Of a stretch of 48,644 bases of DNA, positions 1 to 36,732 are shown one piece after another. This stretch comes from Hydrurus foetidus. Its lineage: Eukaryota. Every line of letters starts with the position of its first letter. Position 1 is the stretch's first letter. The position numbers and the translations under genes were made by a program. A model generated the notes under the pieces. The model was not told the origin of the DNA and searched no databases. It saw only the letters and a list, made by a program, of their open reading frames with translations. The DNA is taken from contig UYFQ01000342.1 in NCBI GenBank assembly GCA_900617105.1, forward strand, positions 1 through 48,644, written 5' to 3'.

Positions 1-1066
1 CGCGGTTTTTGAAAACTTTCCACTCTGGATCCCGTACGGGTAGTCCAAAGGGGGGAATTCGCGCGGGCTCTGGTCCGAGTTTGTTGTTGAATAGCTTTAT
101 GTGTTTGACACAAATTGCTCTAATTTTAGCTTGTTGTTCAGGGGTACCATCGATTTGTATAAGATCGATGAGGTACATTTTGTCCTCTGTTGGATTGTCT
201 TGGAAAGGAGCGAAGGTATCCTTCGACTTGTAGTCAATCTCTTCGGGTCCGAAGGGTTGAACCTCTGGGAGTTCTTCACGCTCCCGGAGTAGAGCAGCAA
301 CTAAACCACGTGTTTGGGCTGGTGCCTTGGATGAGGGAGTAGGAGTAGCTAATTCCGGGCTCCTGTCGGTTGTTACACCTAAATCATTTTGTCGGGGAGG
401 TGACAACAAAACTGCTGCCTCGACCGTAGAGTGCAAAATGAACTCATCAGAATCTAGCCTAGCCGCTGCCGCAGCTAAGCTAGTGGGACACCCACATGAA
501 GGAGTGCATGTCTTGCTTGTACAAGCACCTCGAGCCACCAGGTCGTCTTGCCATCGACTGTCTGTGTCTGAGGGTTTTATCCCCTCTCGGCTAGTTATAA
601 CCGGAGGTAAGGTTGGACTTGTGATACTCGTAACTGTGTCCGACTCTGTATCTAACATGAGTGGAACATCCACGTGGTTTAATACCATGTTTGTGGATTG
701 ATTCAGTTTTTGAAATGAGTGAATTTTTTCATTTTGGATATTTTCCGGAGATTGGAAGAATTCCGGAATGATTTTAACCAAATTTAGTTTTTTTATGGTC
801 TCTAATCCTAAGATTAGGTCGACTTTGGAATCTTCTGCAATTCGCACCGGAAGAGAAAAAGTGTATTTTAAACCGTTTTTGTTAAATGATACAACAATAT
901 CAAGGACAGCAGTGGATTCAATACATTGATTATTTAGACCCGAACACATCCATATGGGAGAGTCGGTGGTGCGAAGTTGGGGTTCACCACGTAGGCCCCG
1001 AAGGACTCTACGATTGATTACGTCCCCAACTTGACATCCGGTGTCGATTTGGGCTAAGGCGGCCAT
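1..1066 (-). CDS. pol: G1 pol, partial: aspartic protease, spacer and start of RT (open to the window edge)
   Basis: Manual translation MAALAQIDTGCQVGDVINRRVL...MCSGLNNQC...VDLILGLETIKKLNL...KDTFAPF...PARIPPF. Probably missing from the ORF track because no stop lies within the window. Confidence 0.85.
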   Translation of the reverse strand, partial: MAALAQIDTGCQVGDVINRRVLRGLRGEPQLRTTDSPIWMCSGLNNQCIESTAVLDIVVSFNKNGLKYTFSLPVRIAEDSKVDLILGLETIKKLNLVKIIPEFFQSPENIQNEKIHSFQKLNQSTNMVLNHVDVPLMLDTESDTVTSITSPTLPPVITSREGIKPSDTDSRWQDDLVARGACTSKTCTPSCGCPTSLAAAAARLDSDEFILHSTVEAAVLLSPPRQNDLGVTTDRSPELATPTPSSKAPAQTRGLVAALLREREELPEVQPFGPEEIDYKSKDTFAPFQDNPTEDKMYLIDLIQIDGTPEQQAKIRAICVKHIKLFNNKLGPEPARIPPFGLPVRDPEWKVFKNR

Positions 1067-1473
1067 GCCGTTATTTTGGTCCATAGCTGGAGGAGGATTT
1101 GGGTGGGGACCGGTCTCGATCGCGGCGATCTTTGTCTTTGTCTTTTCCGCTTGGCGCGAGTCGTCTTTGCGGTTGGAGTCGCGGTCGCGGCTGTCAACTC
1201 GGTCGCCAAAGCGGTAGCCGGGGATTGGGTCTGAGGAAGATATATTGTTACTTGTAAGTAATCATCAATCTCGTTAGGTATGATTGTTGATAAAAGCATT
1301 TGCATGTTTGGCAAAATACGATTTTCTGAGATATTTTCCGCATACGGAATTTTGGACTCACTTTTTCCTTTGTACCCGCGGTCTTTGATGTCGCGAGTAT
1401 CGCGGTTTTCGTTGCGATCGGTGTCGCGATTGTCTTTGCGGTCGTTGTCGCGGTTGGACCGGTCGTTGTTGCG

Positions 1474-1506
<33 letters not shown>

Positions 1507-1911
1507 GGCTTTGGCTTTGTTGTTCTTGCTGTTGTTGTTGTTGTTCTTGCGAGGGTCGTCTTTTGCAGCGGGACCCATGTCAGTTTCGACGTCGTCGGTT
1601 GGGTAGACGTATGTTGCCGCGCCAGGATTGTTGGTTGTCCTGGTCATTTCGCCATTGAGTAGGACGTTTGGGACGAAATGGTCGTGGCCAATTCTCCTGA
1701 ACTCCGTTGCCAACGTGGATTGACTCCACGTGGTATACGAGTTGTTGCAATGAGGATTCATGAAATTGCGACAATCGTAGCGATTGTGTCCTTGGCGACC
1801 GCAGGTGTGGCAATTATCGATTGTTTTGCTCAGACCTGGGTAGGCGTCGGATTCGCGTTTGGGTATCGTGCGGTAGGAGGCGGAGAGCTGCGTTGTGTTG
1901 CTGGACGACAA
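1054..1911 (-). CDS. gag: G1 gag C-terminal part: zinc knuckle plus Asn-rich and Arg/Asp-rich tail
   Basis: CHTCGRQGHNRYDC (CX2CX4HX4C) and poly-Asn from a (TTG)n tract at about 1475-1545. Confidence 0.85.
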
Positions 1912-3521
1912 TGAGTCGGGGTGATTTTTGTCTCGAAGTCGTAACGAAGACCACCCATGTTGGACGCGTTGATAACTGTTTGCCGAGCTTCACTGAGGCA
2001 GAGATTCATTCGGCACAACATGTTTGGGATGGAATCCTTTTTGTTGTTTCTTGTTTTGTCCTTTGTAATGTTCATGAAGTTTTCAGTGAACTTATTATCA
2101 AGAGGGAGCTTTTTGTAGATGATCTTACAGATCTCATGTTGGCGGTCTGCAGGTATATTGTCGTAGCTGCCGTAGTATCCGAAGAGGATGTCTCGGAGTC
2201 GTGCAATTGCCGCCAACTCTACGTTTGGGTTTTGCCATTTGATCTTCATTTGCCAGTTTTTCAGGGCGAGGTCCAAGTCATAGGTAGACTCTGTGGCGCG
2301 ATCACTGAAGAATAGTTTCTTGAGATCGGTGGCCATGTCGCGAATGGACAGGAGTTTGTCGTCGATGATGGGCCAGGTTTGACACATTTTGATTGTGTAT
2401 CCGAGAGTCTTTCGATTTTGAAGGAGACTGTCTCGGATCACATGGACAGCTTCGTCTTCGATGAGATCCTTCCAAGGTGCATTAAACTGAGGGCGGTGCG
2501 CCTGTGTATAGAACTTTCGGGCTGTGCCGTCCATGTCCTTCAGTAATGTCTCACGTGTTACATAGAACACTTCCTTCATGTTGATGAGGGAGGTTGTGAG
2601 TGCTTGGGGTGTTCGTTGTTGTTCGAAGACTGTGTCAGTCTCTTCGGTTTTGCGTTTGCGGTTTGAAGTGGCAGCCGCTTTCGTGGAAGCTGTCGCTGAC
2701 TTCTTTGCAGCTGCTACCGTTGCTTTGGACGTTTTGGATCTGGTGGCACGCGTGGGTTTGTCTTCAGATTGGACGGCAGAGAGTTGTTTTGCCTCCCTTG
2801 TTTTGGCAAGGGGTTTGATTGGCATCGCCTTTTTCTTCTTCGGTTTTGGTGACGGTGGGGTTGACGCCTCCGACTCACTTTGATCTTCCTCGTCCGATTT
2901 GGACTTGGTATCGTCGGGGTTGTTGTCTTCCTCTTCGTCCTCGTCGTTGGTTTGTTCGTCTTCCGCCTCTTCCGAGGCGTTGTCAGACACCGAGACGTTA
3001 TCATCGTCGGAGAGAATTTCCTTCGGAGATATTTTGGTACCGATTGTGTCGTCGCCCTCTTCCGTTTGAGAAGGATTGATATCCTCTTCTTCTTCGGTTT
3101 GGGGTCGGATTGGAGAGCCATCCTCATCTGACTGAGGGTTTAGACTGTGTAAGTCATTTGTCTCTTGCATCCAGGCTGACAAGTCTTTCAGTTCTTGATC
3201 TTCGAGATCAGATCTGTTGTCAGCCTGTTCCTGCAGCACTTCAAGTCGCACGCGATTGCGTTCACGTTCTTGTTGTAGCTGCAGGAAGCGTGCTTCGTTT
3301 GCCGCCAATTCATCGGATATGCGCGTATGGGTGCTCGAGGCTTTGATAGCCGATTTGCCCAGCGTCTTCATGGAGTTGGCTATATTGTCTTCCCGAGCGA
3401 GACGCTCGAGTTTAGCCTTCTCTTTATCCGATAGGAAGAGGATATTTTGGGGTTTGGAGCGTTTGGAAGACGAGCTAGCTTCGCTAGAGCTCTCTTTCCT
3501 TGGTTTTTGGGCCTTAACCAT
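1830..3521 (-). CDS. gag: G1 gag N-terminal part with a long acidic/basic low-complexity extension
   Basis: First long ORF downstream of the 5' LTR. It overlaps the zinc-knuckle ORF by a one-base frame change. Confidence 0.7.
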   Translation of the reverse strand: MVKAQKPRKESSSEASSSSKRSKPQNILFLSDKEKAKLERLAREDNIANSMKTLGKSAIKASSTHTRISDELAANEARFLQLQQERERNRVRLEVLQEQADNRSDLEDQELKDLSAWMQETNDLHSLNPQSDEDGSPIRPQTEEEEDINPSQTEEGDDTIGTKISPKEILSDDDNVSVSDNASEEAEDEQTNDEDEEEDNNPDDTKSKSDEEDQSESEASTPPSPKPKKKKAMPIKPLAKTREAKQLSAVQSEDKPTRATRSKTSKATVAAAKKSATASTKAAATSNRKRKTEETDTVFEQQRTPQALTTSLINMKEVFYVTRETLLKDMDGTARKFYTQAHRPQFNAPWKDLIEDEAVHVIRDSLLQNRKTLGYTIKMCQTWPIIDDKLLSIRDMATDLKKLFFSDRATESTYDLDLALKNWQMKIKWQNPNVELAAIARLRDILFGYYGSYDNIPADRQHEICKIIYKKLPLDNKFTENFMNITKDKTRNNKKDSIPNMLCRMNLCLSEARQTVINASNMGGLRYDFETKITPTHCRPATQRSSPPPTARYPNANPTPTQV

Positions 3522-4073
3522 CTTGAAAACTTGGCGTGGGAAATCTCACTGGAACTCTGCGTCTTGGACAGCGACGGAACTCGGACGCGGTGATTCAGGG
3601 AAAAGAGGAGTAGGTTGTTCGAGGGTGAGGAATAGTAGGTTAAGGATGTGGTAGTAGGAGTCAGGGGGATTGGAATGGTTTGGTGCGATTTCGGGAGGAA
3701 ATCGCAACAAAATTTGGACGTGGGCGGCGGCTTCGTAAGGAACGAAGCTGGGCGTGGGCGCGTTGGATTTCGTTCGTGAACGAGTTTGGGAGGTGTTACT
3801 TGCTTGCAAGTTCCTTTCCTTCGTAAGCCTTCGCGTAGAAGAGCTGCACGATATTTTGGGAATAAATCGCCAATATTTGAGGTCGCGAACGACTACGATT
3901 CAGAGGCTGTCGCGTTGACGAGACCTTTGTAATATCGTTTTGGGTGGTTTTCACTCCTGAAGAGTTACTCAACTTGTTGCTCAGACTGTTTTACGGTCGT
4001 TGCGGGATTTTTTGTTGGGACGTTTGGTCAACTTGGATCTGAGAGATCACTAGCTGGTTCCAAATACCGGTAT

Positions 4074-4290
4074 TGTGGCCTTGCCAGGATCTGGGCGTTG
4101 GGAGCGGGACGGCTGGGAGCGGGAGCAAGGGAAAGGAAGCTGGGAGAGCTATTGCGATGGAAACAATGTGGTTAGCTTACAGGTAAACACAGCAGGTATC
4201 ATGGCAATGAATCGGATGGATCGGATCGTCCTCGATCCGGTCCGAACGTACGCCTGTACCCGTACAGCCCGTACGGGTGTGCGGGTCACA
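4074..4290 (-). repeat. G1 5' LTR (217 bp)
   Basis: TG...CA ends with imperfect terminal inverted repeat TGTGGCC/GGTCACA. Shares ATCGGATGGATCGG with the G2 LTR. The partner LTR is outside the window. Confidence 0.8.
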
Positions 4291-5378: not shown

Positions 5379-5585
5379 TGTAGTCCAGATAGGAAGTAGG
5401 TCGATAGAGGAAAGGTGTTAGTTAGTTACAGGCTCTAAGCTAGAAGCTAGGATAACTTCTACGAGTAGGCTAGAGCTAGCTAGCAGCTGCGCTAGAGATG
5501 TATGTGTACAGTAGGCGGTAGGATCGGATGGATCGGGACAAGGTCCGGTACGGCCCGTAGGCCCGGTATAGCCGGTCCGACCACA
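5379..5585 (-). repeat. G2 3' LTR (207 bp)
   Basis: Direct repeat of 11947-12153; TGTAGTCC...GACCACA. Confidence 0.97.
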
Positions 5586-5941: not shown

Positions 5942-7966
5942 TTAGGCTGATGTCTCAATGTTTCTGGGAATGAAATGTTTCATTTTGTTATCCCGTAAAT
6001 AATCATGGAGTGCTTCACAGAGCCGTAGTGATTTCCACGGCTCCCATGTATTATGAGAATCATCGTAGTTGAGCCATTTAACATGGAACGACATTGTAGT
6101 CGGTTTCTTGGTGTCACCAGCGTGACCCAGAACTTTCTCAACCACGAACTCCATGTAATCGCGACGAGCAGTGTCAGCAGGTATATCTACCTCTGGGTCA
6201 TAATTGAATATCTTCAAATTTTTGACATGAACACTTCGTGTCTTGTGGTTAACAAGGTTAGCGATAACATACTCGGACCCCTTAAGGGAGACAATACAGT
6301 AAGGGCCATGCCACTTAGTATGTAATCGAGTTGGAGGTCGATCAGTGTATCGGCATAAGACATATGACCCCACGGGGAACACAGTCGCTGATTCAGCTGA
6401 CGCGGCATTTTTAGCATCCGCCGTTAACAAAGTTTGAACCGCAGTTTCAAGTACTTTGTCTTGTACACTTATCAAATCTGATATGTACGTTGATCTTGAA
6501 TGTGTTCCAACACTTAAGTGTGGAGTGAGAATACCACGATTCAAATCAAGTTTGTTCCCGAACAGTAAATGAGCGGGGCAGACACCTGTGCGTCTATTAA
6601 CTGAACCGTTAATGATACGTTGCACGAATGGGATTGACTTAGCATATCCCTCAAGGGTTTGTTTATCAAAAACTAAACCTCTTAAGTGTCTATTCACCTC
6701 TTTGTTGACTCTCTCAACAATTGCATTCTCTTGTTTCGAGTAAGCAAGGGTGAGATTATGTGGTGTCCCACAAAGATCTAAGAAATCTTTGATCAAATCA
6801 TTTGCGAAATGTGATCCTCGATCAGATCTAATCATATTTGGTGAACCAAATCGACCAAAATGCGCAAGCAAACAGTCAGCTGCTGATTTAGCATCTGCGT
6901 CTGCACACCAGAACAATTCTGTCCATCGTGTGAATGTATCGATGATGACTAGGATATAACCTTTGTCAGGAAATGGACCAATAAAGTCAACATTTAGCGT
7001 ATCGAAGATAGCATAATTTGAAGTTGCAAAGTGAGACGCATTGATCTTAGGATCTTTTGCGCTCAACTTTTGACAACACGGACAGTTCTGTATGAACGTA
7101 CGTACATGTTGTTTCATGTGTTTCCATACTTGTTGTAAACTAAACAACCGAGTAAGGGTACGGTCTACGCCGTTGTGACCGACAATTGCATTGTGGCACA
7201 TTTGAATGTATTCTAACTGATCGTCTGAAGCTGGTTCTATGACCGTCAGAGCTGATACAGTGAAAGAAGATGATGAAGTAGGAAGTAATTCCAATTCTTC
7301 TGTTCGTAATGGCAGAGCAATTTCTGTCAAATTAGGACAAAGCCTTGACAGTGCGTCTGCCAAAACATTCGAAGTACCGGGTACGAATACCACGGTAAAA
7401 TCTAGTTCTTGCATAGCAATGAACCATCTCGCCACCATTGAGGTAGGATTTTGTTTCATATATGTTATGTTCAAATGATCCGTATGGATAGTGAACGTAC
7501 GATCTCTGATTAGATAATCGAGTTGTGTACAACAAAAGAAGATGGCATAAGCCTCCTTTTGTATCGTAGACCACCTTATTTGTGTAGGTGTCAACGATTT
7601 GCTAATGAAAGCAATTGGTTGCCAAATGGTACCAACAACTTGGAATAAGACTCCACCGATACCAAAGTCGGATGCGTCTGTATACAAGCGGATGTCTAAC
7701 TTATTGTCATCAATGAAGTACATTAATGGACAACGAGATATAGCAATCTTTGTGTCAACAAATGAGTTGGTGCTCTTTTGAGTCCAAACTACAGCAGAAC
7801 GTCTCGGAGCAGAGTGATCAATCATATCCTGCATTGGCTTAACCAAAGTGGAGTGCATTGGTACAAACTGTCGAAAATAGTTCGCTAAACCCAAAAATGA
7901 CCTGAGTAAGGTTAAATTTTTAGGTATAGAAAAGTTTAAAACTGTTTCTATCTTCTCTTTTGACAT
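5942..7966 (-). CDS. pol: G2 pol: RT thumb, RNase H, integrase and C-terminal chromodomain
   Basis: YTDASDFGIG (RNase H), HHCC zinc finger, SDRGSHF...ENAIVER (DDE), GPY motif, and VEKVLGH...VKWLNYDDSHNTWEP (chromodomain). Confidence 0.95.
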   Translation of the reverse strand: MSKEKIETVLNFSIPKNLTLLRSFLGLANYFRQFVPMHSTLVKPMQDMIDHSAPRRSAVVWTQKSTNSFVDTKIAISRCPLMYFIDDNKLDIRLYTDASDFGIGGVLFQVVGTIWQPIAFISKSLTPTQIRWSTIQKEAYAIFFCCTQLDYLIRDRTFTIHTDHLNITYMKQNPTSMVARWFIAMQELDFTVVFVPGTSNVLADALSRLCPNLTEIALPLRTEELELLPTSSSSFTVSALTVIEPASDDQLEYIQMCHNAIVGHNGVDRTLTRLFSLQQVWKHMKQHVRTFIQNCPCCQKLSAKDPKINASHFATSNYAIFDTLNVDFIGPFPDKGYILVIIDTFTRWTELFWCADADAKSAADCLLAHFGRFGSPNMIRSDRGSHFANDLIKDFLDLCGTPHNLTLAYSKQENAIVERVNKEVNRHLRGLVFDKQTLEGYAKSIPFVQRIINGSVNRRTGVCPAHLLFGNKLDLNRGILTPHLSVGTHSRSTYISDLISVQDKVLETAVQTLLTADAKNAASAESATVFPVGSYVLCRYTDRPPTRLHTKWHGPYCIVSLKGSEYVIANLVNHKTRSVHVKNLKIFNYDPEVDIPADTARRDYMEFVVEKVLGHAGDTKKPTTMSFHVKWLNYDDSHNTWEPWKSLRLCEALHDYLRDNKMKHFIPRNIETSA

Positions 7967-8003
7967 GGATAAACCATCTTTGTCAACGACTCTGCCAACG
8001 TAT

Positions 8004-8819
8004 TCAATACGTGGAAGGCCGAAACGGCATTTTTTTAGCTTTGAGTCTTAGACCCTTAAGTCTAAATCTTGCAAAAACTTTTTTTTTCAAGTTAGTAAGA
8101 AACTCTGCTTCACCCTTGCCATATACTATACAATCGTCGAGATACATCTCGCAACAATGATAGATAAGGCCATAGAGGACCGCCGTTACCATCTGCTCTT
8201 GAAAGTAAGAGGGGGCTCGACACGGACCAAAGGGCAGTCTCGTAAACTGAAAGACCCCCGCAAAGCATATGAATGCCGTAAAAATGCGGTGTGCGGGGTG
8301 TAACGGTGCTTGATGGTAACCAGCGGTTAAATCCATCACACCAAAAATATCCGGTTTTTTATTACCGATCCTCTCAAAGAGGTGTTTGATATTTGGTAAC
8401 GGGAATGAGGCCGGCTTAAGACACCTATTAAGTGGCCGGTAATCGATGCAGGTTCGAAATTTACCGGGTGACTTAGTTACTATTACAGGATGACTGTAAT
8501 AAGCGGCATCTGATCGCTCTATAACCCCTGATGCAAGCATCTCGTCAAGGTTTTCTTTGAGAGCAACCTCTTTTGTTGATGACTGGGGACGTACCGGCGT
8601 ACGGTTTTCGTCTTTTTCCCACAACTCAAGTGGGATGTTAATCTCAAAGGGTCTAAGTGACGCTGGTTTCTCAGCTAATTGATCACTGAAGATGTCTGAA
8701 TATTCAGAACAGAGCTCTCGGAGCTTCCTTTGAAAGCTTTCATCTCCTTCAAAGGTAATCTCTTTGAGGAAATCCTCTGGCCCTTTGGGCAAGTCATCTT
8801 GACTAGGTTTCTCCGCCAA
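8004..8819 (-). CDS. pol: G2 pol: reverse transcriptase core
   Basis: RTCIDYRPLN, MDLTAGYHQ, RLPFG, YLDDC. Confidence 0.95.
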   Translation of the reverse strand: MAEKPSQDDLPKGPEDFLKEITFEGDESFQRKLRELCSEYSDIFSDQLAEKPASLRPFEINIPLELWEKDENRTPVRPQSSTKEVALKENLDEMLASGVIERSDAAYYSHPVIVTKSPGKFRTCIDYRPLNRCLKPASFPLPNIKHLFERIGNKKPDIFGVMDLTAGYHQAPLHPAHRIFTAFICFAGVFQFTRLPFGPCRAPSYFQEQMVTAVLYGLIYHCCEMYLDDCIVYGKGEAEFLTNLKKKVFARFRLKGLRLKAKKMPFRPSTY

Positions 8820-9910
8820 GAAGGGGCAAACGTATCTATCTTGCCATCGTCAATCTCGTCAACTGAGAGTGCGACACCACTGGGCCATAAAGGCTCAGTG
8901 ACATAGTCTAAGGTATCAGAGTCCTCAGAAGTGTTTGTAGGGGTGGGAATCTGGTCGCCACCTAGGTGCGGTGTATCACCCGTACGTTTTGCGAGAATAG
9001 TAGTGACACTATTCAGTCGCTCACAACCTACAACACCACAGGGATCTTGGGTAGCTACTCCCTCGATCTCCATCTGAGTATCGTTACATGTCGACATTGT
9101 ATGGACACAAGAGACGTTGCTCTTCGAAGAAGATTGACCATGCAATATGCTCTTCTTGTTTGGATACTCGGAAGATCCGTGTGTTTCTCTCTTTTTAGAG
9201 GGTGGTTTACCGCCTGGATATTTCAGCTTGTCGTAGTGAGGTGTTAAAGACTCGACTACGGCTGTATCAGGTTCGGTACCCAACGCTATCATACGACGCG
9301 TATATTTGTGTTGAAACAACGGATCGAGTTTATCCAAAGCTTCTTTTCTTTCGAATTCGCGTCTGCGAGCATCGCTCTTTCTCTTATTCTCAGCACTTAG
9401 CTCAGGAGAAATGCCGAATGCAAACGGAGTTAACGTCCAAAAATCATACTTATTTACCGTTTCACGGCTAAATAAAATGTCGATGTCGGTTTTCCGATTG
9501 ACCCTCATGGGTAGGCTGATGCTATGGCATTCACCATCGTAAGAATGAAAAAGGATTTTTAAATCGCAAATTTCGTTATTTAGATAGCATTGGCCATCAA
9601 GACCGCTGCAAACAGTTATGGCTTTAAGAGCAGGATAACATAAGTGAGTGGCATTTAATTTTTCAATCATGTCATATGAAATAAAATTGTCCGAATAATT
9701 GGCCGTATCCATTACGGCCTTCCCCGCGGCGCGCAGCTCGCTAGCTGGGCCTGTCCTGTCCTTATCCTGCACAATAACCGTAACGTTAAGGTGGTGAGAA
9801 GCGAGGATGGAAGGGGTATGTAAAAATTCTTCACGAATAGGTACAAGTGGCTGCACTTCGAGATGATCATCAGTCAGATTAAAGACATCATCATCGAATG
9901 TGGCAGCCAC
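8675..9910 (-). CDS. pol: G2 pol: aspartic protease and spacer
   Basis: AVMDTANYSDNFIS aligns with LLDTGSFAGNF (G4). CSGLDGQC is shared with G1 and G4. Confidence 0.8.
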   Translation of the reverse strand: MAATFDDDVFNLTDDHLEVQPLVPIREEFLHTPSILASHHLNVTVIVQDKDRTGPASELRAAGKAVMDTANYSDNFISYDMIEKLNATHLCYPALKAITVCSGLDGQCYLNNEICDLKILFHSYDGECHSISLPMRVNRKTDIDILFSRETVNKYDFWTLTPFAFGISPELSAENKRKSDARRREFERKEALDKLDPLFQHKYTRRMIALGTEPDTAVVESLTPHYDKLKYPGGKPPSKKRETHGSSEYPNKKSILHGQSSSKSNVSCVHTMSTCNDTQMEIEGVATQDPCGVVGCERLNSVTTILAKRTGDTPHLGGDQIPTPTNTSEDSDTLDYVTEPLWPSGVALSVDEIDDGKIDTFAPSWRRNLVKMTCPKGQRISSKRLPLKEMKAFKGSSESSVLNIQTSSVIN

Positions 9911-9929
9911 ACAGTCATGGGCAAGGTTC

Positions 9930-11384
9930 TTACCCTGGTGTTGTCCCGGCTGAGTGTTGGGAGGAGGGTTGTGTCCCTGCGGGGGTTGTATTTACCCTTA
10001 CCGCCGGACCCACGGCCCTGGTATTGGTTCGCATTGGGGTTTTGATGGCCCCTTTGCTTACCTCTACCACCCCCTGGTTACCCTGGTTACCATAACCAGA
10101 TTGGTTCTGGGAGTTTCCTCCTTGACCCTGGTTGGAACGATCTGAACCATCCGAGGTGTTGGAGTTGTTTCCAGAACCATGGCTGTTCTTGGCGCGCTTG
10201 TTGTCGTTACACATCAAGTAAGGTTTAGAACCTCTGGGGTAGAACTGAACTCGTTCCTCATATCCCGGAAGGACGAGGTTGAGTTGCCATTCAGAGTACC
10301 CCACCGCGGCCCAAGCCATCCCCACTGTAGAACTCTCCCACTCAACTTGGTGATTCGTGTTGGAGTCGGAGTAATACAGTATGGGGCAGTCCGCCAAATT
10401 GTGCGACGCAGCTCCGCACGACCGGCACGGACGAAACATCGGTACGAGCGGTACTTCCGTGGAAGCACGGACAGAGAGTCCGTGCTGCGTCGGAACGTAC
10501 GAGCTAGGAGTACGCACAGTAGCAGTGACTGATCTCGACGAAGCGGATGGTGTAGGTGAGGGTGCTTTAGCACTCGCTCTACTCGTCTCCCTCTTACCAA
10601 CGTCTGGTGGAACTGCTGATGCAGGAAACGAGTACACCGTGTCCGGGTTGCCATAGCTTTTGATGAGGTTCATCATTGCCCTAGCCTCGGCAAGAACCTG
10701 ACCAATGCGTAGCATAGTCGAATACCACGTATGAGGTGGGGAATTGTCAGCAGCTTTCGCTTTCAGGTAATCCTGTTGGATTTGACTACCCTTGGCTAGG
10801 CGCTTCTCCAATATCAATATGAGCTCAGCATGCTGAGTCTCAGATAATGGTCCCTTAGACCTCTCATAAGTGCTCACAAGTTCGTTGTAACGTACGAATG
10901 TGGCATTCTCATGATCGTGGTTAGCGATCTGATAATGGAAAGGAACTTGGCTAAAGCTCTCTGCCAGAGTACATTCTCCCAAACCATTTGGAGAGAAGTA
11001 CTTTATTATCAGTTTGGCTACCTGAAGTACCGACAATTTAGTCTGCCAATCATGGCGTTGTCGTCTATCGATGATGTTAAATTCAGGATCGATCATGATC
11101 CTGAAATTAAGTAACTCGATTGCCTGCTTCTGCATGCAATCGGTCAGCTTCATCAACGGGTACCTCTGAGCCTGTTCGTAGAACTCAGTCGCATCAGCTT
11201 CATCAATGAAGTTATGCCTGAGGACGAACACCTCACCCTGGAGTTGCATCGTCGAGGGGAAAGCTGGGAACAGCGAGTTCGACATTGAGATAGTCGACTC
11301 GTTGAGCGCGGCTAAAGCTGCCTGACGTGCAATCTCCTCTTCGTCCGGATTCGGATCAGGGTTTGGGTTAGGTGGTGATGACAT
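9930..11384 (-). CDS. gag: G2 gag with zinc knuckle
   Basis: CRSCGAASHNLADC and an N/Q/G-rich tail; position downstream of the 5' LTR. Confidence 0.88.
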   Translation of the reverse strand: MSSPPNPNPDPNPDEEEIARQAALAALNESTISMSNSLFPAFPSTMQLQGEVFVLRHNFIDEADATEFYEQAQRYPLMKLTDCMQKQAIELLNFRIMIDPEFNIIDRRQRHDWQTKLSVLQVAKLIIKYFSPNGLGECTLAESFSQVPFHYQIANHDHENATFVRYNELVSTYERSKGPLSETQHAELILILEKRLAKGSQIQQDYLKAKAADNSPPHTWYSTMLRIGQVLAEARAMMNLIKSYGNPDTVYSFPASAVPPDVGKRETSRASAKAPSPTPSASSRSVTATVRTPSSYVPTQHGLSVRASTEVPLVPMFRPCRSCGAASHNLADCPILYYSDSNTNHQVEWESSTVGMAWAAVGYSEWQLNLVLPGYEERVQFYPRGSKPYLMCNDNKRAKNSHGSGNNSNTSDGSDRSNQGQGGNSQNQSGYGNQGNQGVVEVSKGAIKTPMRTNTRAVGPAVRVNTTPAGTQPSSQHSAGTTPG

Positions 11385-11946
11385 GTCTAATCACTTATCG
11401 ATGTAAATCTCACTGAAAGTCAATGGAGATCGATAACCCCTGCTCAGAAAAATTTTTCAAGAGCTTCGCCTCGTTCACAAACGGGTACTGTAACGTCAGT
11501 AACAACGAATGAAGCAATTCTACCCAACTCTTGAACTGAAAAGTTCTATGGCGTGAAAGCCAAATTTAGAGTGGTAGAAAAATTGGGTGCCTGTTAAGGT
11601 CAAAGACGTTGCTCAACGTCGACAAAAAGAAGTCTATAGACTAATCTTATGTCTCTGGTGATGAATCTGTGATTCGATCGACCAGCGGAGCAAGTCTAAA
11701 ATGACTTCTGGGAAGGATAAATCAACTTCGACCAAAATGTCAAGTTTGGAAGAGCCCAATGCACGGGGATTCCAAGAAAGCAGTTACTCTGACTTTCTCT
11801 AACTTAGACTAGGTCTTCTGAGCCAATGGCTGCAGAAGAGAACGGCTCGAAAGTCGTTGAGCAAACGCTCAGAAGTCTTATCTACAGGTTGGGACGAGTA
11901 GACGGAATGAGAGGTAGCAGAGAAAAGAGTGGACTAATAGCGCTAT

Positions 11947-12153
11947 TGTAGTCCAGATAGGAAGTAGGTCGATAGAGGAAAGGTGTTAGTTAGTTACAGG
12001 CTCTAAGCTAGAAGCTAGGATAACTTCTACGAGTAGGCTAGAGCTAGCTAGCAGCTGCGCTAGAGATGTATGTGTACAGTAGGCGGTAGGATCGGATGGA
12101 TCGGGACAAGGTCCGGTACGGCCCGTAGGCCCGGTATAGCCGGTCCGACCACA
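11947..12153 (-). repeat. G2 5' LTR (207 bp)
   Basis: Direct repeat of 5379-5585. Confidence 0.97.
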
Positions 12154-12157
12154 CAGC

Positions 12158-15525: not shown

Positions 15526-18500
15526 GCCCTCACGAACATTCGAGCTCTTTTTGTGAGAATTGGCCATCAATAGCCAGACATATTCCGAGTTATGGACTTA
15601 ACTTCCGGTTACCATCAGGCACCTATGGATCATGGATCCAAGGTCCTAACTGCGTTCATTTGCTATTGCGGTGTATACCAATTCACCAGACTCCCCTTCG
15701 GTCCTCGGAGAGCCCCCTCTTACTTCCAAGAGATGATGGCGACTATTGTCCTTAATGGACTCATCTACATTTGTTGTGAGATGTACTTAGACGATTGTAT
15801 CGTCTTTGCACGAGGCCAGGACGAGTTCCTGGAGAGACTAGAACGAGTCTTTCGACGTTTTCGTTGTTTTGGTTTACTGCTTAAAGCAAAGAAATGTAGA
15901 TTTGGGATGTCTCAGATCGATTATGTTGGCAGACAGATCTCTTCTCAGGGCATTTCAATGTCCAAACAGAAGATTGAATCTGTCCTAAATTTCCCAAAAC
16001 CCATGACACTTACTTCTTTACGAAGTCTGTTGGGCTTGGCGAACTACTTCAGGAATTTTGTTCCTTTTCACTCCGACATCGTTGCGCCCCTTCAGAGGAT
16101 GATTGACCCTAAAGGGGGAAAGAAGTTTGCCCTTCAGTGGACTACGGAAACAGACAAGGCTTTTGTTCTGATAAGACAAGCCATATCCCGCTGTCCGCTG
16201 CCACACTTCTTAGACGAAGTGTCACCTATCGAGTTATACACCGATGCCTCCGACTATGGAGTAGGTGGAGTATTATTCCAAGTAACTAATTCTGTCAAGA
16301 ATCCGATCTGATTTGTGAGTAAGTCGCTTAGCGAAACACAAGTTAAATGGTCTACCATTCAAAAGAAAGCCTATGCAATTTGTTTTTGCTCTAAACAACT
16401 TGACTCTCTTATAAGAGATAGAAAATTTATCATCCATACGGATCATAAGAACTTGACCTTCTTAGGACAAGACCCATCTGCAATGGTAAATAGATGGTCG
16501 ATGGCTCTCCAAGAGCTCGATTACACTGTGTCCTATATAAGTGGACCCAAGAACTTCATCGCCGATGCACTGTCTCGGTTATGTCCTAACTTAACACAGT
16601 TAGTTCTTCTCGACCCATCTACTAGAGTGGAGGAAATTGATGTTCATATATCAGCTCTGCATGAAGTTGCACCTGTTACCGAGTTACAACTCGAAGTTAT
16701 AGAGATGTGCCATAATGCCATGGTGGGAAATGGAGGCAATGCTCGTACCCTCGATAAACTATGAAGTATAGATGAGGAATGGCTCGACGTGACATCCCAT
16801 GTTAGAGACTTCATCCGCAATTGCGCATGCTGCCAAAAATGAGTGTGATCTATATCCCAGTTCACATTCATAAGTACACAACGTCTACTTATAGACCGTT
16901 TGACGCAGTCAACATCGACTACATTGGTCCGTATCCAGATAATGGATATGTTTTGATAATAATTTGTTCGTTCACAAGATGGACTGAACTTTACTGGTGT
17001 GTTAACAACATTGCACAATGCGCATGTGAATGCCCTCTACAATTCTTCGGTAGATTTGGTGCACCAAGCATGATCCGATCGGATCGTGGATCTCATTTCA
17101 TGAATGAAATCATACGTGAGCTTACAGGGACCCCCCACAACTTAACCTTGGCGTACTCAAAGCAGGAGAATGCTATAGTGGATAGAGTTAATAAGGAAGT
17201 AAAACGACACTTACGTGCGTTTGAATTCCATTCTACAAATCTCGAAGCCTATAGGCTTTGCCTGCCCTTCGTGCAGAGAATTCTCAACAGTTCCGTACAT
17301 TCAAGTACGGGAGCTTCACCAGCTAGCTTGCCGTTGTGAAACCAACTTAACCTTGATAGAGGTATTCTAGTTAGGTTTCCAGATCAAACTCAAATTCCGA
17401 CTCGTTCGTCGAAGGTGATAGCAGATATGCTGCTCATTCAAACGCGACTCAACGATTTAGCAATAAATAACTTGAAGACAACAGACACTAACCGAGTAGC
17501 TATTAATACAGAACCTAGAGCTATATTTCCAACACGTTTGTACGTTCTTACATTCAACCCTAGAGGTGCTGAGACTAGATTACACAGTATGTGGCTGGGC
17601 CGTTTTCTGGTTGTAAGCTATGATAAAAGTGAATACACTATCAAAAATCGAATCACGAAGAAAAATCGTGATGTTCATGCAAGTCAGTTGAAGCCGTTTA
17701 GGTTCAACCCAACTTCGCAATCACCGAATATTTCATTGAAGAGATCTTTCCCATGTTGGGAATAAGAAGAAACCTTCTACAATGAAATTCTATGTCAAAT
17801 GGTTGAATACGATTCAAACCATAGTTCATGGGAACCATGGAAGTCCATGCGCGCCACAGATCAACTTCATATGTATCTGCGCAATAACAACATGTTGAAC
17901 GTAATTCCAAAAGAATTTCGAAATATGACTCCCAATAATAGGGAAGAACCGTGAATGATATCTTTTGAAGATTACTCCTAAAATTTTTACCTCAATCTAT
18001 TGTTTTTTTTACGGAGGTTAGTCAGTACAAATCTGACATTATTATTCACGAGCACACCCACTCGACACACAACCCCCCTTTTCTTTTCACATATTGTATT
18101 TTGTTTTATACAATACTATTGTCTTTTGTACAATATCATTTAATTTCTTTGATTGTTGCCCTTCATTACGAAGCGCTAGATTAGTTACTCTTCCTTCTAA
18201 AGCGTTAGCTTATTTCATAAAGAAACAAGATTTATTATTTTCAGTTCTGAAAAACGTTTTTCACTCTTCCTTCAGAAGCGTTAGTCTACTTGCCCTTCCT
18301 AAAAGCGCTAGCCTAGTTCCTTCATTCTCAAAATTGATGTCAATTTTAGTTGAAATAAGTGGGGGTAGTGTAGCCGTCTGGGGTCCTCGGGACCTCGGGA
18401 CCTTGGACCTTCCGTCTGTTTGGGTAAAAAACGTCTGTTTGGGATTCCGTACCCAAACACACCGTAGACTTCTAGGTAGACTCCTAGCACCTTGTTAGGA

Positions 18501-18589
18501 TGTCTCCGTGCACATCGCACAGTTCAACAACCCCTTCTAGGCCTAACCAACACCTCCTAGCTCTCTAGCCTAGTTCCTTCAGGGCCACA
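15526..18589 (+). mobile_element. 5'-truncated, decayed chromodomain Gypsy element G3 (RT-RH-IN-chromodomain pseudogene, PPT, 3' LTR)
   Basis: MDLTSGYHQ, YLDDC, YTDASDYG and SDRGSHF, with several stops and frameshifts. PPT GAAATAAGTGGGGGTAG at 18352-18368. Confidence 0.92.
18369..18589 (+). repeat. G3 3' LTR (about 221 bp)
   Basis: Follows the PPT; TGTAGCC...GGCCACA ends resemble the other Gypsy LTRs. No partner LTR is present. Confidence 0.7.
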
Positions 18590-23609: not shown

Positions 23610-24035
23610 TTTCAGTTTTTGACAGAAGTTGAAGCTCACAGCTGGAATAAATTTTGATCTTCTCTCGCGTGTCAGGATAAATACTCAATCAAACTCTCGA
23701 TGATATCATCGACAGAATAAGGCGAGGCGAGTCACAGGTCAAAGGATTTAAAAGAAAAGTTATGAGACATCTATCTCTTGAACCCCATGAATCATGAACT
23801 GAACAACTCTTGTACGTTGTACAGTGGGTGACCTCGTAAATTCAAAACTCCCCCAGAACCCAGATTTGGGTGACATAAATTTTGACTTTCCAAAAAGTTT
23901 ATGTCACCCAAATCTAGGATTCGAGGAGAATCTAGACAGGGGGGGGGTCTAGATTTTTTTTTGGAATCGCAGATTTTAAAAAATTTATGTAACCCAGATT
24001 TGAGTGACCCAGAAAAAAAAATCTAGACACCCCCC

Positions 24036-29253: not shown

Positions 29254-29271
29254 GATGAGGTTAATTCCAAC

Positions 29272-29867: not shown

Positions 29868-32800
29868 ATGATAGCGGGTGATGAAGAAAATGATGAGCTT
29901 CTCTTCATCTGTGTAATTTTCGCAGCAGCAGTCTGGTATAACTCGTTGAGGCATAGGAGTAGATTGACCAGATCCGCGATTCTCGAGTCAAGATTAAGTC
30001 CTTGGATCAGGCTGCATCAGCACGGTGATGACAGGTCTTTCCTAGAGCTAACGGGCTTCAGTAGGGTTGCTTTCAATAACCTGAAAATCGCAATATTCGG
30101 CGTTAATGATAATCGAGTCGGATGGGTCGGTCGGCCGTCAAATTTAGATCGTAATGGTGAGCTTGGTCTATACCTATTTTTCGTGGGATCACAAATGAAA
30201 ATCAAGTATCTCTGCCTGATATTCGGCATCGTTCCAACAACAGCGACGGTTACTATTTACAAAGTCATGAGGCGGATTTGCAGGATCTTAAAGACACATC
30301 CTGCCGCAAGGGTGATCTTTCCAGATGACAACCAGATGCGAGAATTTGCTGAAATGATACAGATTAGAGAGCCAATGGTGAATAACGTCATTGGTTTCGT
30401 TGATGGGCTGAGTCTACCTGTGCAGTGCTCGGATGATATACTGCTGCAGAACGCCGCTTACAATGGATACAGTCACGACACGTGCTGCACAAACGTGTTC
30501 GCCTTCTCTCCATATGGAAAGATAATGTACAGTGCATACAATTATCCTGGGTCTTGGCATGACAGCACTGTTGCCCAGGATCTGGTAAACATAGTCATAT
30601 CAAGGATAGGAATCTATGCGTTGTGTGTCGATCAGGGATTTCCATGCAGTGGAGATCTCCACGGCAGATTTGTTGGACCCATGTCAAAGAAAATGAAAAG
30701 AAGGTTGTCACCTGAGCTAGCTGAATACTTGCTTCCACTACATGAAAGATACATATCTTTACGCCAAGCATCGGAATGGGGTATGCGTGCATTACAGGGA
30801 ACGTTCTCGAGATTGAAAAGTAGAATGACCTCTAGGACAGGAATAAGAAAGAAGATTATTTTCAGCATCATTCTGTTACACAATTTTAGGACAGAATTCG
30901 TTGGATTAAATCAGATAGCTACCGTTTTTAATCCGCATTACGATCAGTACATTAACTTAGATACATACGACAGAATGTGGTCTTGGGCGGGGCCTAGGAC
31001 GTTGGAGCTAAAAGTGGTGGTCGGTTGATGCAAGCGGTGGGCAAGGGAAGGAAGGATAGGTGGAGTTAACTTGTGTTAGTATTTTACAGTTGAGTATCTA
31101 CAAGTGATGTGTACGCTAAAGTGCATTCACGTCATATGTGGAACTAAGACCTAAAAGTGGAATCTGGGCGTAATATACCTATTGTACCTAGTTAACCTAG
31201 ACACATTGTATCCCCTTAGGAATGCAATAAGGCTACACTACCCCTTCTTCCTTTTTTGAAGATCTTTGATATGATATACAAAAAAAATGAAAAAAAAGAA
31301 AAGATATGTAAAACATATATATGAGATATAGATGAAACGATGATGTCAGACTTTTACTGACTAAACTCTCCAAAAAAGACCCGTAGGTAAAAAAAAATAG
31401 GAGAGAATCCTCATGGATAAAGTTTCAAATATATAAGTCATCTATGTTGCTTATTGATTAATTTAGTCATGTTATTATGACGTAAATAATCATGAAGTTT
31501 ATCAACATCACGAAGACTTGAATAAGGTTCCCAAGTGTTTTTGTCTGAAGGGTAATTTAACCATTTGACTAAAAACTCTATGTGGGTACGTTGGTGTTTG
31601 CCACGATGATCAAGAATGTCTTCAACAAAGTATTCCATGTGATCACGTCGTGCAACATCCAACGGATTTGTGATTGAAGGGTCAAATAGAAAAGGTTTCA
31701 TTGCAGAAACATGAAACTCTGAAGTTTTCTGAGTGACTAAATCATAAAGTGTGTAACGCGAATTTTCGCCACTAACGACTTTTAATGGGCCTCTCCAATG
31801 CGTGTGAAGACGTGAAGGAGGGGATCCATCGCGATAGTGCACTAAGACATAAGAGTCTTTTGGATAATCTACATGCTGAAAAACTTGAGACTGACTTTGA
31901 TGAAGCAAATCTGTGCGAAGAAGTTCTTTAGCAGAAGCTTTAAGAAGACTGTCTTGCGTTTTGAGTAGATTGCTCATACGCTTTGACAAAGGTTTGTCAT
32001 CAGTAACATTTCGCTCAGCAGGAGGTAAAAAAATACCTCTATCGAGTTTGAGTACATTTCCGAAAAGAAGTTGAGAAGATGATATTTTAAACGATCACTG
32101 TGATTCGAATTTAAAATTCGTTGCACAAATGGTAGTGACGTTTTATAATCTTCTAGTGTGACATTATCGAATGTTAATGCACGAAGATGTCTATTAACTT
32201 CTTTATTCATGCGCTCAACAATAGCATTTTCTTCTTTAGAATATGCTAAAGTAAGACAATGTTGAGTGCCAATAAGAGTTAGAAACTCTCTAATAACTTC
32301 GGAAATGAAGTGTGGCCCATTATCAGAACGGAGTTGGAGAGGTGCGCCGAAACGACCGAAGTGTTGCAAGAGGCATTTAGCTGTTGAAAGTGCTGTAGCA
32401 TCTTCTGTATGAAACAGTTCAACCCATCTTGTGAACGTATCGATAATTACGAGTACGTACCCGCCGTCTGGAAACGGTCCTATGAAGTCTATGTTAAGGC
32501 ATTCCATAGGTGTGTAAGTAGAAGTTGAGAAACCATGAGCATGTATTGGTATCTTTAACATACTCATTTTCTGACAACACGAACAGTGATCTATGAACCA
32601 CCTGACGTGCTGACGCATATATTGCCATACTATTTTTTGTCAATGAGACGCTTTAAAGTGCGCTCAAGGCCAAAATGCCCAACTTGTGAATTGTGTACTT
32701 TACTGATTGTATTGTACTGATCACGTGTTAGTTTGAATTTTTCAATAGTATTAGCAGACATGATTGCATCAGGAGTATATTCCTGAGGGAAATCAACCAT

Positions 32801-35800
32801 GTTATTGCGACAGAGTCGAGACATCGAATCAGCTATATCATTGTTAGCACCAGGTATATATTCAATTTTAAATGAATATTCGGATAAGGCCATAAACCAC
32901 CGAACAATCATTGGATTTGAATTATCCTTGATGTATAACAAGTTACGATGATCTGTACGCAATGTGAACGTACGATCACGTAATAGCGATTTTAAATACG
33001 TGCACGAATAAAAGATAGCATATGCTTCTTTTTGTATAACAGCCCAACGAAGCTGAGCTTTGTTAAGTGATTTACTGACAAATGCTATGGGCGTTTCTTG
33101 ACCGTCAACTAGCTGGAAAAGATAGGCACCTACACCATAGTCCGATGCATCAGTGTGCAAGTAAATCGGATCGGTGTCACTTAAAAAGTGCATAGTCGTG
33201 CATTTTGAAATCTCGGATTTGATCAAATTGAATGCTCTGAGAGATTCTATTGTCCAAGTTATTTTCTTATACTTATTATAGTTAAGAAGCAACTGATGTA
33301 ACGGGTATACAACAGTAGAAGCGTTTCTAACAAAGTCGTGAAAATAATTAACCAATCCTAAAAAACTTTTGAGTTGTTTAGATAGTACTGGTTTAGGAAA
33401 ATCTAAGACAGTCCGTATTTTTTCTTGTGACATTCTAAGTCCATCTGCAGATAGAACTTTGCCAACATAATCTATTTCGGCATAGCCTAGATAACACTTA
33501 TTCGGTTTAAGGAATATTTTGTGTTTTCTAAAACGTTCAAAAACAAGACGAAGTCTAGAAATGAGTTCGTCAATGTCTTTACCGAAAACATTGCAATCAT
33601 CTATGTACATTTCGCATATAGAGTATATCAGACCTGCTAACACAACAGTCGTCATAATCTGTTGGAAATAGGAGGGTGCTTGTTTTGGCCCAAAGGGTAA
33701 ACGAGTGAATTGATATACTCCGCAGAATAGTATGAATGCAGTATAAGCACGTGCAGCGAGTGTAAGTGGTGCTTGATGGTAACCTTGAGTGAGATCAAGT
33801 ACAGCAAACACTTTTGCTTTATGTGCACCTATTCGACGCAACATCTCACCGATGTGTGGAATAGGATGTGATTTATCTTCGGTACAATTGTTGAGATTCC
33901 GAAAATCAATACACATGCGCTTAGTTCCATCAGATTTTGGAACTAGTAAAACTTGGCTATAATAAGCCGCGTTTGATTTTTCAACAATATTTTGTTTTTC
34001 AAGTTTGTTAATTTGACTAAGAATGTCAGCTTGATCAACTGTTGATTTAGACCATGGAGGTTGTCTATTTTTAGAGACTCTCCATTGGTCGTCATTGACA
34101 TGAAAGTCAAAGGGTGGAATATTAGCAGGAGTGGCCGAAAGTTCACTGCTAAATATATCCTTGAATTCGTGTACTAGTAACCGAAGTTTATTTTTCTGAT
34201 CTTCATCACCTGCTAAGTTTATTAGCGAGAGTGGGTCAGTATCAGGAAATTCATCTATCCAAGGTGAAAACGAGTCCTTGATCGAGTCGTCGATTTCGTC
34301 CTCATCAGGGGGCACAGCCTCAAAAAGTCTTTCAGACTCTTGTATTAGTGAAGCTAGAATAACATGTGTTTGGGTTACTGCCGGTTTCACCTTTTGGGTT
34401 AAAGGATCGACCTTTGGGGAGCCATCAGAGGGTTGCAACTTCTCCTTAGGCTGACAGCCACACGTTATATCCACTTGTTCAGAAGATAAAACTTCCGCTA
34501 ATGAGGTAGTGTTTGATGAAGCATTGGCAGATATTTGATCGGGGAAACGTGAAAATAAATTCAATTCGCGAATTGTTTTTCGTCCCACTATTAGATCAAA
34601 TTTCGAATCGTCTAAAACATAAGCCGTGATTTGAAAAGTATAATAATTATTTAAATCAGGGCAAAAATAAGAAAGAGTTAAGTCTATAGTGTCAGAAATA
34701 TCATAACAATGATTATCTAATCCACTACAAACTTTACACAATTTCTTTGAAGAGTTAGATACGAATTGTGTGAAATTATGATTAATTATGATGCGGCGAT
34801 GTATAAAGTTGCCAGCAAAAGAGCCGGTGTCCAGGAGAGTAAAGACTCTATTACTTTTTCCAGCATAACCTCCTGTGAGAGGGGAGATACGAAGAAAGGA
34901 ATAAGTTCTGGATCATCGGAAAGAATAGATGATGAATTTAGGTTGCATAGTTGCTCACCTTTGTGTTTCTTCGCAGCGTTTGTCGAGTCTGCTGTTGATG
35001 TAGCAGGTTTTGACGAAGAGGAAGAAGAAGAGGAAGACGATGAAGAAGAGGTCGATGTCTTAGGTAAAGTTGGAATAAACTTAGCCTTTGAATCGACTTT
35101 CAACAACTGCTTATGACCCTCAGAGTTGATATAGGGTGCGTCTGTACTGTTATAGTACGGAGACGTAGTGTAGAAACACGTGGCGACGAAATGGCCGAGT
35201 CTCCCACAACCTGTGCACAGAGGTCTTTCGAATTTGTCAGACTTGTCTGATTGCACAGATTGTTCGCTCTCTCGTGGACGTTTTTGATTTTGTCCTGAGA
35301 GGAACGAGGAGGAGCTTTGATTTGGCGAGAGTGATCACCATACAAAGGAGAGACATCAATGAACCGTAAGGCATCAATTGATTCTCGTAGCTTAGCAAGC
35401 TGCGCAAGCCATACGAATCGAAAGTCTTCGATTGTAATGAGTCTTGGCGTTGTATTGTTAAGACTACGCTGTAACACTGCTCTCCAATTGATAGGTTCGA
35501 CAGGCAACTTATCGATTAGAATTTTGGTTGCCTGAAGTTGGAGAGCGGGTGTTGCATCAGGGAATCCATCAACAATATCAGCTAAAAGCTGATCTGTCTT
35601 GTCTTCCACTGATTTATCCTTCAGGTCGAATTGAAGTGCGACCTGAGAGACAGTTTCAATGAAACTCAGCTTGTCAGTTCGATTGACAGCTGATGTAGGA
35701 ACTGTGAGATTGAGTTCTCTACAGAACAATTGATTCGACCAATGTTTCCAATTGTTACAGGAGTCGCGACGATCGGGATCAGTTGCAAACTTACGCTTGA

Positions 35801-36732
35801 GAAGCGTTGTAAACGATTGATGGTTGGAAACATGGATTACATCAACTGGTTTAAATGGAGTTCCATTTGAAAGGAGGACCTCCATTACCCGTAGTACTTC
35901 CTGACGAGAGGGCACGGCGCTCAACTTAGGAGCTCTCTCACCCGTTTGCACATAGTGCTGAGGTGGTGCCATCGAACGAGGAATCTCAGCCGAAGCTGGT
36001 GTCGCAGACGAATCTGGTGTCGCAGCCGAAGCTGGTATCTCAGCCGAAGCTGGTGTCGCAGTCGAAACTGGTGATAACGTTAGAGCGGATAAAGCAGATA
36101 AAACAGGAGCATCAATAACAGACGAGACCGCAGGCTCCGAATTCCGCTGAGGAATCGGTGCAGACAGGTCGCCGGCGGGGTCCTGAGCCGCAGGTGGCCC
36201 AGGAGACTCGATGCTATCTCCTCCACGATTGTGGTGCTCCTCGTAACGTTGTCGGAAGGCGACGGCGACAGCTCTAGGAGGCTGTCGTTGTCGGCGAAGG
36301 GAATTGATGGTGCTAATCCTCTTGTCCTGGCGTCGGAGAGCCATTGTCTTCGACTGTCGGAATTACGTGATGGATTAAAAATTGATGGAGCGGAGAAACG
36401 AACTTCTCTCGACGAAAAAACTTTGGTATCGACCAAATATCGATATTGTGGTCTTGGGCGGGGCCTAGGACGTTGGAGCTAAAAGTGGTGGTCGGTTGAT
36501 GCAAGCGGTGGGCAAGGGAAGGAAGGATAGGTGGAGTAAACTTGTGTTAGTATTTTACAGTTGAGTATCTACAAGTGATGTGTACGCTAAAGTGCATTCA
36601 CGTCATATGTGGAACTAAGACCTAAAAGTGGAATCTGGGCGTAATATACCTATTGTACCTAGTTAACCTAGACACATTGTATCCCCTTAGGAATGCAATA
36701 AGGCTACAAGAATACAGAGGTATTTCGCATAG
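29868..36732 (+). CDS. DDE_Tnp_4 (PIF/Harbinger-type) transposase, 29868-30975 plus 36713-36732, interrupted by G4 near its C-terminus
   Basis: IGFVDG, PGSWHDS, CVDQGF and RQASEWGMRALQGTF. Removing G4 and one AGAA restores ...DTYDRIQRYFA*. Confidence 0.92.
30976..31237 (-). repeat. G4 3' LTR (262 bp)
   Basis: Direct repeat of 36447-36708. Confidence 0.97.
31438..34872 (-). CDS. pol: G4 pol (PR-RT-RH-IN-chromodomain), split by single-base frameshifts near 32630 and 32030
   Basis: LLDTGS, YIDDC, HTDASDYG, SDNGPHF and EYFVEDILDH...VKWLNYPSDKNTWEP. Confidence 0.93.
34873..36344 (-). CDS. gag: G4 gag (one frameshift near 35260) with zinc knuckle
   Basis: CTGCGRLGHFVATC, ATPASAEIP repeats and poly-Ser. 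Confidence 0.85.
36447..36708 (-). repeat. G4 5' LTR (262 bp)
   Basis: Direct repeat of 30976-31237. Confidence 0.97.

Follow-up and report, generated by a model that had tools for sequence, protein, structure and literature searches.

The window analyzed here is the whole 48,644-nt stretch of contig UYFQ01000342.1 from Hydrurus foetidus. It is eukaryotic DNA dense in transposons. The single cellular gene checked, an MFS transporter gene, has named relatives only in algae and protists, with ~51-76% identity, on which the host was read as a probable alga with a red-lineage plastid. The LTR retrotransposons G1, G2, G3, and G4 are arranged in the window as follows (coordinates, strand, feature).

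1..3545, minus strand: gag-like ORF and the start of a pol-like ORF of G1, running off the left end of the window and placed by position and layout
4063..4074, minus strand: palindromic PBS of G1, comprising the LTR-terminal A, the 10-bp core ATACCGGTAT, and a closing T
4074..4290, minus strand: 5' LTR of G1, 217 bp, TGTGA...CCACA; its boundary is inferred from the frame, the window holding no 3' LTR of G1
5379..5585, minus strand: 3' LTR of G2, with a polypurine tract directly before it and host flank without palindrome after it; TSD GCTG
5942..11390, minus strand: gag-pol of G2 in several interrupted frames, with RT, RNase H, integrase, and chromodomain
11931..11954, minus strand: LTR/PBS junction of G2, with the 12-bp palindrome at 11936-11947 (core ATAGCGCTAT) and a short flanking U5/leader stem
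11947..12153, minus strand: 5' LTR of G2, 207 bp, 100% identical to the 3' LTR of G2
15547..18589, plus strand: G3, a degenerate element of this clade that has lost its 5' end and whose PBS is unreadable because only pol, PPT, and the 3' LTR survive
30976..31237, minus strand: 3' LTR of G4, with an adjoining polypurine tract and host flank without palindrome; TSD TTCT
31438..36362, minus strand: gag-pol of G4 in several interrupted frames, with RT, RNase H, integrase, and chromodomain
36436..36447, minus strand: palindromic PBS of G4, comprising the LTR-terminal A, the core ATATCGATAT, and a closing T
36447..36708, minus strand: 5' LTR of G4, 262 bp, identical to the 3' LTR of G4 but for one difference

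G1, G2, and G4 are chromodomain (chromovirus-type) Ty3/Gypsy LTR retrotransposons. The Pfam domains of G2 and G4 appear in the order RVT_1, RT_RNaseH, rve, and Chromo, which is the order of Gypsy. The best solved-structure matches to pol were 4ol8 (RT/RNase H) and 7q5b (Ty3 Gag-Pol). Membership in Copia is ruled out by the Gypsy domain order together with RVT_1. Both G2 and G4 have a pair of TG...CA LTRs, an adjacent PPT, and TSDs of 4 bp. There is no Pfam match in the gag-like and pol-like part of G1 (1..3545). The catalytic motifs of RNase H, read from ORF translations, are unbroken in G2 and G4. Both elements have broken reading frames; many relatives, by contrast, carry a single ORF of ~1800 residues. 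The G2 element is present in metagenomes from freshwater, biofilm, sediment, and glacier. Scans of viral contigs for relatives confirmed none. The G2 family is diverse and very high in copy number; more than 4000 small contigs were matched on 1 kb in two runs (window 11300-12153).

The surroundings of these elements are composed of other repeats. G4 sits inside the ORF of a DDE_Tnp_4 (Harbinger-like) transposase, with a second ORF on the other side (29847-31028, 36772-37731), and G1 and G2 are inserted in remnants of Copia (4328-4671, 12044-13170). A Copia element with LTRs at ~24035-24344 and 29271-29579 is enclosed by perfect 107-bp inverted repeats (23836-23942 and 29572-29678), part of which is found again at 37982-38033. 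These inverted repeats are probably a MITE or a DNA transposon that took the Copia insertion. The sequence after the LTR of this Copia element (29250-29280) is non-palindromic and has no TGG at +1. Long arrays of 5-bp satellites (GATAG and ATACT types) are followed by an open frame of 1361 codons, which contains 54-bp repeats and runs off the window (39979-44300, 44561-48644).

The 5' LTRs of G1, G2, and G4 all end in ACA in the sense of the element, and the core and a T come next. The first-pass annotation had reported 12-bp palindromes at 4063-4074, 11936-11947, and 36436-36447, and all three were found there. It had also stated that each palindrome includes the last base of the LTR. This is provable in G2 and G4, because their LTR pairs and TSDs fix the ends, and in G1 it depends on the inferred boundary. 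What is strictly kept is the 10-bp core that spans +1 to +10, whereas the pair formed with the terminal A is broken in 4 of 39 junctions of the clade. Of the 6923 CA sites on the two strands of the window, 23 (the three junctions among them) precede a perfect core of at least 10 bp; the 5' LTR ends do so in 3 of 3 cases. As had been claimed, the LTR contains no copy of the palindrome; outside the site, none was seen with 0-1 mismatch in G2, in G4, or in as much of G1 as the window covers. The LTRs themselves are indeed largely unalignable, and the matches shared among those of G1, G2, and G4 do not exceed 26 nt. Among the variants listed for the G2 family from contigs, none falls inside 11936-11947; those listed include 11922, 11923, 11935, 11955, 11974, 11977, and 11979. 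The same listed contig variants include no strand-switch joints. The first 50 bases of the LTR are crowded with short GTAC, CCGG, and CGTACG palindromes throughout the clade (12100-12153, 4240-4290, and many other loci).

To survey relatives, 44 of at least 120 full-length relatives were aligned, and metagenome contigs were scanned with the alignment. The 58 loci studied (L numbers below) come from the best 80 of at least 108 confirmed stretches. The junction between the LTR and the internal region is readable in 34 of these loci, which gives 36 junctions; the other 24 loci are cut off before the 5' LTR or contain only the 3' LTR and its flank. With the three junctions of the window, a perfect palindromic core starting at +1 is present in 39 of 39 junctions. 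Under a null of shuffled sequences that generously counts a core anywhere within 300 bases, 5.45 of 39 would be expected. The core is 8 bp long in 3 junctions, 10 bp in 30, and 12 bp in 6, with 19 distinct sequences. The closing pair is A:T in 35 junctions, A:A in 3, and A:C in 1. At 80% identity in the RNase H-integrase region, the junctions form 27 clusters (G1 and L054 being without that region).

The junctions of relatives were partly placed by palindrome search, and only in G2, G4, and L031 does the element's own second LTR fix the boundary. Gag-like sequence or an ORF of at least 500 codons follows the junction in 25 of the 36 cases, and the other 11 are supported by the motif alone. Among the 58 loci, no locus with continuity from LTR to gag is without the core. 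Six loci (L008, L025, L030, L041, L042, and L048) show an LTR start and long downstream sequence with no palindrome, and no gag-like sequence follows in them. The core is absent at 7 of 7 junctions between a 3' LTR and the host, four of whose boundaries were set by eye. The palindromic site is a real, clade-wide feature of these chromodomain Gypsy elements.

Several variations were observed around the site. In the subclade of L007, L017, L020, L022, and L023, the LTRs end in TA instead of CA, and the LTR of L021 begins with TTA instead of TGT; the register of the palindrome is unchanged in both. The subfamily of L012, L019, and L028 has a second palindrome-like site ~44 nt past the PBS (L012:509-570, L012:6857-6920, L028:4229-4290), again behind ACA in L028 and in the second copy of L012. 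The contigs of L001, L003, L006, L017, L020, L021, L033, L047, L012, L014, and L018 are assembled as circles with one LTR or as tandems joined head to tail, and host sequence beside them is scarce or absent. Collapsed repeats are one possible cause, and extrachromosomal cDNA circles are another.

Covariation was analyzed in an alignment of 23 of the 30 junctions with the 10-bp core, near-duplicates being left out, which yields 21 distinct rows. The register was counted from the terminal A through the closing base. In this alignment, 124 of 126 cells are paired; 30 are paired by double change, and there are no one-sided changes and no G-U pairs. When the register is slid, 35-52% are paired. Neither the observed score nor the percentage paired was reached in any of 500 shuffles, while the less extreme count of double-change pairs was reached in 24 of 500 and that of further pair types in 71 of 500; these counts are not probabilities because kin share changes. 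The palindromy and covariation that the first-pass annotation proposed to score in relatives thus hold in 39 of 39 junctions for the perfect core and in 124 of 126 cells for pairing, and the covarying pair that it described is true and much wider than the three families.

The changes reach the center of the core. The central two adjacent bases occur in all four self-complementary states: CG, GC, TA, and AT. Between L019 and L028, which are 99% identical in amino acids in the RNase H-integrase region, the center changes from GC to TA. Between L029 and L021, with 84% amino-acid identity, it changes from TA to CG, and two pairs differ between L014 and L018. On a tree of this clade only, independent swaps are repeated. 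Two adjacent central bases cannot pair with each other in a hairpin.

The sequence following the LTR does not resemble known primer-binding sites. The absence of TGG next to the LTR, reported for the window, extends to the relatives: TGG is found within +1 to +5 in 0 of 39 junctions. TGG occurs at +11 to +18 in 8 of 39, including +12 in G1 and G4. A displaced tRNA PBS at +12 was considered and rejected; TGG is present within 20 nt in only 8 of 39, the letters that follow it differ, and it belongs to an arm of the outer stem. Neither the window nor the 58 loci contain tRNA genes. Self-priming of the Tf1/sushi type is recognized by a complement of the PBS of at least 10 nt inside the 5' LTR (criterion of PMC6317226). 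A 10-nt complement in the LTR is found in 0 of 39 junctions, so that with the 0 of 39 for TGG the earlier judgment that the site is neither tRNA-primed nor of Tf1 type stands. The longest LTR complement counted from +1 is 2 nt in G1, 5 nt in G2, and 4 nt in G4, and it is at most 8 nt in all 39 (two with partial LTRs). These lengths are no better than those in shuffled LTRs (27 rows with control). A possible Tf1-like exception is L033, whose A/T-rich LTR matches its A/T-rich core at 10 of 11 positions. A second arm of the GalEa type was also sought, and with at most one mismatch within 8-70 nt downstream it was found in 0 of 39.

In all 39 junctions, the core alone has a predicted folding energy of 0.0 kcal/mol and forms no hairpin. 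As a homoduplex, its predicted energy ranges from -2.8 to -13.1 kcal/mol, the weak duplexes (-2.8 to -5.8 kcal/mol) being those of A/T-only and 8-bp cores. The symmetry had been described as extending into the end of the LTR. Such an outer stem is present in G2 and G4 and is not a rule of the clade. As a conserved element, the outer U5/leader stem was rejected: 10 of 39 junctions fall in the top tenth of the local null, where ~4 are expected. In the G2 family it is hit by common variants at 11935 and 11955 (contigs), and the outer arm GGACTA described for G2 shares the first base of the palindrome.

The 3' end of the primer fixes the end of the LTR. Since the LTR end is set in this way, the primer must anneal at +1, and a primer that anneals at +1 on a palindrome must have the sequence of the palindrome. 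Within the element, that sequence occurs at the site and nowhere else. The best reading of these sequences, to which we give just over half of our credence, is that two packaged RNAs would pair via the palindrome and that one of them would be nicked to prime the other. Components of such a process have been described: RNase H cuts the Tf1 primer from the element's own RNA (PMC7175516; bioRxiv 2022.12.06.519325), and particles contain an RNA dimer (PMC7175516).

This priming in trans would proceed in three steps. First, two genomic RNAs would join through the core as an antiparallel duplex. Short U5/leader helices would sometimes flank the core duplex, giving a three-duplex shape like the pretzel of Tf1, made in trans. 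Second, the RNase H of RT would cut one of the two RNAs immediately 3' of the core, as in Tf1. The primer would then have its last core base paired to position +1 of the partner RNA, and synthesis would begin opposite the LTR-terminal A. Third, the plus strand would copy the primer, and the site would be rewritten as its own reverse complement. Second-strand transfer would then demand strict symmetry in DNA, and a single mutation would show as a compensating partner on the other strand. This demand would explain the double changes, the lack of G-U, and the lack of single-step intermediates. Under trans priming, both halves may change in one step because copying of the primer regenerates the symmetry. 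The core duplex would also serve as a dimerisation signal. The model would require that only one of the two RNAs be cut, and that either the long 5' part of the primer (R-U5) be trimmed or plus-strand copying be halted near the terminal A. The weak duplexes of the A/T-only and 8-bp cores speak against the model, as does the lack of strand-switch joints among the contig variants listed for the G2 family. Trans priming is in keeping with a 5' register that stays fixed while the core length varies among 8, 10, and 12 bp. The closing pair, broken in 4 of 39, can be dispensed with, which fits a primer ending at the core.

Among the alternatives, the one that survives best, itself unlikely, is that the palindrome serves solely to dimerise or package the RNA, in the manner of a retroviral kissing loop, and that a different primer is used. 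It accounts for the intermolecular symmetry and the family-specific letters, the monomer of G2 and some others is predicted to fold with the palindrome in the loop of a stem, and the idea was raised for GalEa by Donnart et al. (PMC5445492). However, it leaves the start at +1 of 8-, 10-, and 12-bp cores and the total absence of G-U unexplained. A primer would still have to anneal at the same place and bear the sequence of the palindrome, and the retroviral palindrome is described as an addition to a PBS (PMC5445492).

Somewhat more doubtful is a fold-back in cis, an option offered by the first-pass annotation, in which the RNA would form a hairpin at the site, be cut 3' of the core, and prime on its own U5. 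Here, the central symmetry would be imposed later, by the need for the primer copied into the plus strand to agree with the genomic site when the second strand is transferred; such symmetry at the DNA level would also account for the absence of G-U. With flanks, many junctions give weak predicted hairpins, down to -7.1 kcal/mol in G2. However, several junctions show little or no predicted monomer fold (0.0 in L003, L005, and L051). The option is weakened further by the core, which is without a hairpin in 39 of 39 and whose adjacent central bases covary. After the cut, the primer would be held by only about three A-U pairs, and a second, uncut RNA would still be required to give the minus strand the site.

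The third alternative, ranked lower again, is a short RNA made outside the particle, either a fragment from element decay or small RNA or a host RNA, which is then packaged as the primer. A free fragment of the sense strand anneals at +1 only on a palindromic site, so a fragment derived from the element accounts for the sequences no less well than trans priming does, and the problem of trimming is avoided. A host source would instead need 19 different 3' ends for 19 cores, and a host RNA would not require symmetry. Finally, an origin of the symmetry in detection or assembly, or in a protein site on DNA without a role in priming, is largely refuted and very improbable: the search partly placed the relatives' junctions by palindrome, several contigs are collapsed or chimeric (L012, L014, L018), and the regions are A/T-rich, but the TSD-bounded G2 and G4 set the boundary independently, every locus with LTR-to-gag continuity has the core while 3' LTR junctions are without it, and a protein site would keep letters and not symmetry alone.

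If trans priming by the palindrome is true, the two RNA copies in a particle play unequal roles, priming is free of host tRNA and tRNA fragments, and the palindrome of each family is a compatibility code that restricts co-packaging and recombination. It would also be a third mode of starting, beside tRNA priming and Tf1-type priming by the 5' end, that arose independently in Gypsy and in GalEa Copia; from the sequences compared, we put this at a little under an even chance. The palindrome also offers an annotation marker for a large Gypsy clade of aquatic protists, which PBS finders based on tRNA would miss. How reverse transcription starts in LTR elements without a PBS is still open for GalEa, Skipper, SM-Tcn1, and Cryptococcus Tcn2-5, according to PMC5445492, PMC5006619, PMC7175516, and PMC2864245.

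The site had been proposed as an undescribed mode of priming. The novelty is partial: in PMC5445492, both the architecture of a palindromic PBS and the idea of a dimer signal are published for GalEa, whereas a report on Gypsy was not found. For a palindromic PBS in Gypsy or for trans priming, a search that left aside most subscription papers (e.g., the original papers on Tf1, sushi, and Cryptococcus Tcn) returned no report. The elements classified as having no PBS in the supplements of PMC6317226 might include such sites.

The Tf1 group (Tf1/Tf2/Tj1, Tf1/sushi/Tcn1) resembles the present clade in being chromodomain Gypsy and tRNA-independent (PMC6317226, PMC4600332, PMC7175516, bioRxiv 2022.12.06.519325). 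These sources describe a PBS of ~11 nt directly after the LTR, a primer cut by RNase H from the element's own RNA, and helices flanking the primer duplex. In that group, however, the primer is the 5' end of the RNA, encoded in the LTR, and the PBS is described as non-palindromic (PMC5445492). No LTR here has a 10-nt complement (0 of 39), and the part of the primer would therefore fall to the PBS of a second RNA copy. Skipper of dictyostelids and SM-Tcn1 of Selaginella are also chromodomain Gypsy elements and lack both a tRNA PBS and a complement in the LTR, but their post-LTR sequence is described as polypyrimidine or T-rich, not palindromic (PMC5006619, PMC2864245). The retroviral dimer initiation site is likewise self-complementary and able to pair two genomic RNAs, a property that is represented here by predicted duplex energies only. 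It is a loop palindrome found besides a tRNA PBS (PMC5445492), whereas the palindrome here is at the position of the PBS, in a fixed register.

The closest likeness is to the Conserved Hairpin Site of GalEa, which has no tRNA PBS and a palindrome right after the 5' LTR, closed by A...T. In these fungal Ty1/copia elements, a 9-bp sequence stands in place of the PBS and forms a palindrome together with the final A of the LTR (Donnart et al. 2017, PMC5445492). The authors mention the idea of a dimer signal and state that no model fits. The main variants of its CHSeq1 are CTGATCAGT, with 25 occurrences, and CTAATTAGT, with 14, which differ by a double change (supplement file 3 of PMC5445492). The feature at +1 that includes the final A of the LTR is shared, with the closing A:T in 35 of 39 and the perfect core in 39 of 39 here. 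The GalEa core is 8 bp and nearly fixed, whereas cores here are 8, 10, or 12 bp, have 19 sequences, and are free at the center. GalEa is also described as having a second arm, CHSeq2, 12-41 nt downstream, which is seen in 0 of 39 junctions here. GalEa is Copia and the present clade is chromodomain Gypsy; as they belong to different superfamilies, the likeness is probably convergent. The architecture is thus a variant of the published fungal Copia one, and the evidence from covariation is stronger here. The clade adds what GalEa lacked: many natural variants, compensated to the center, in three lengths and one register.
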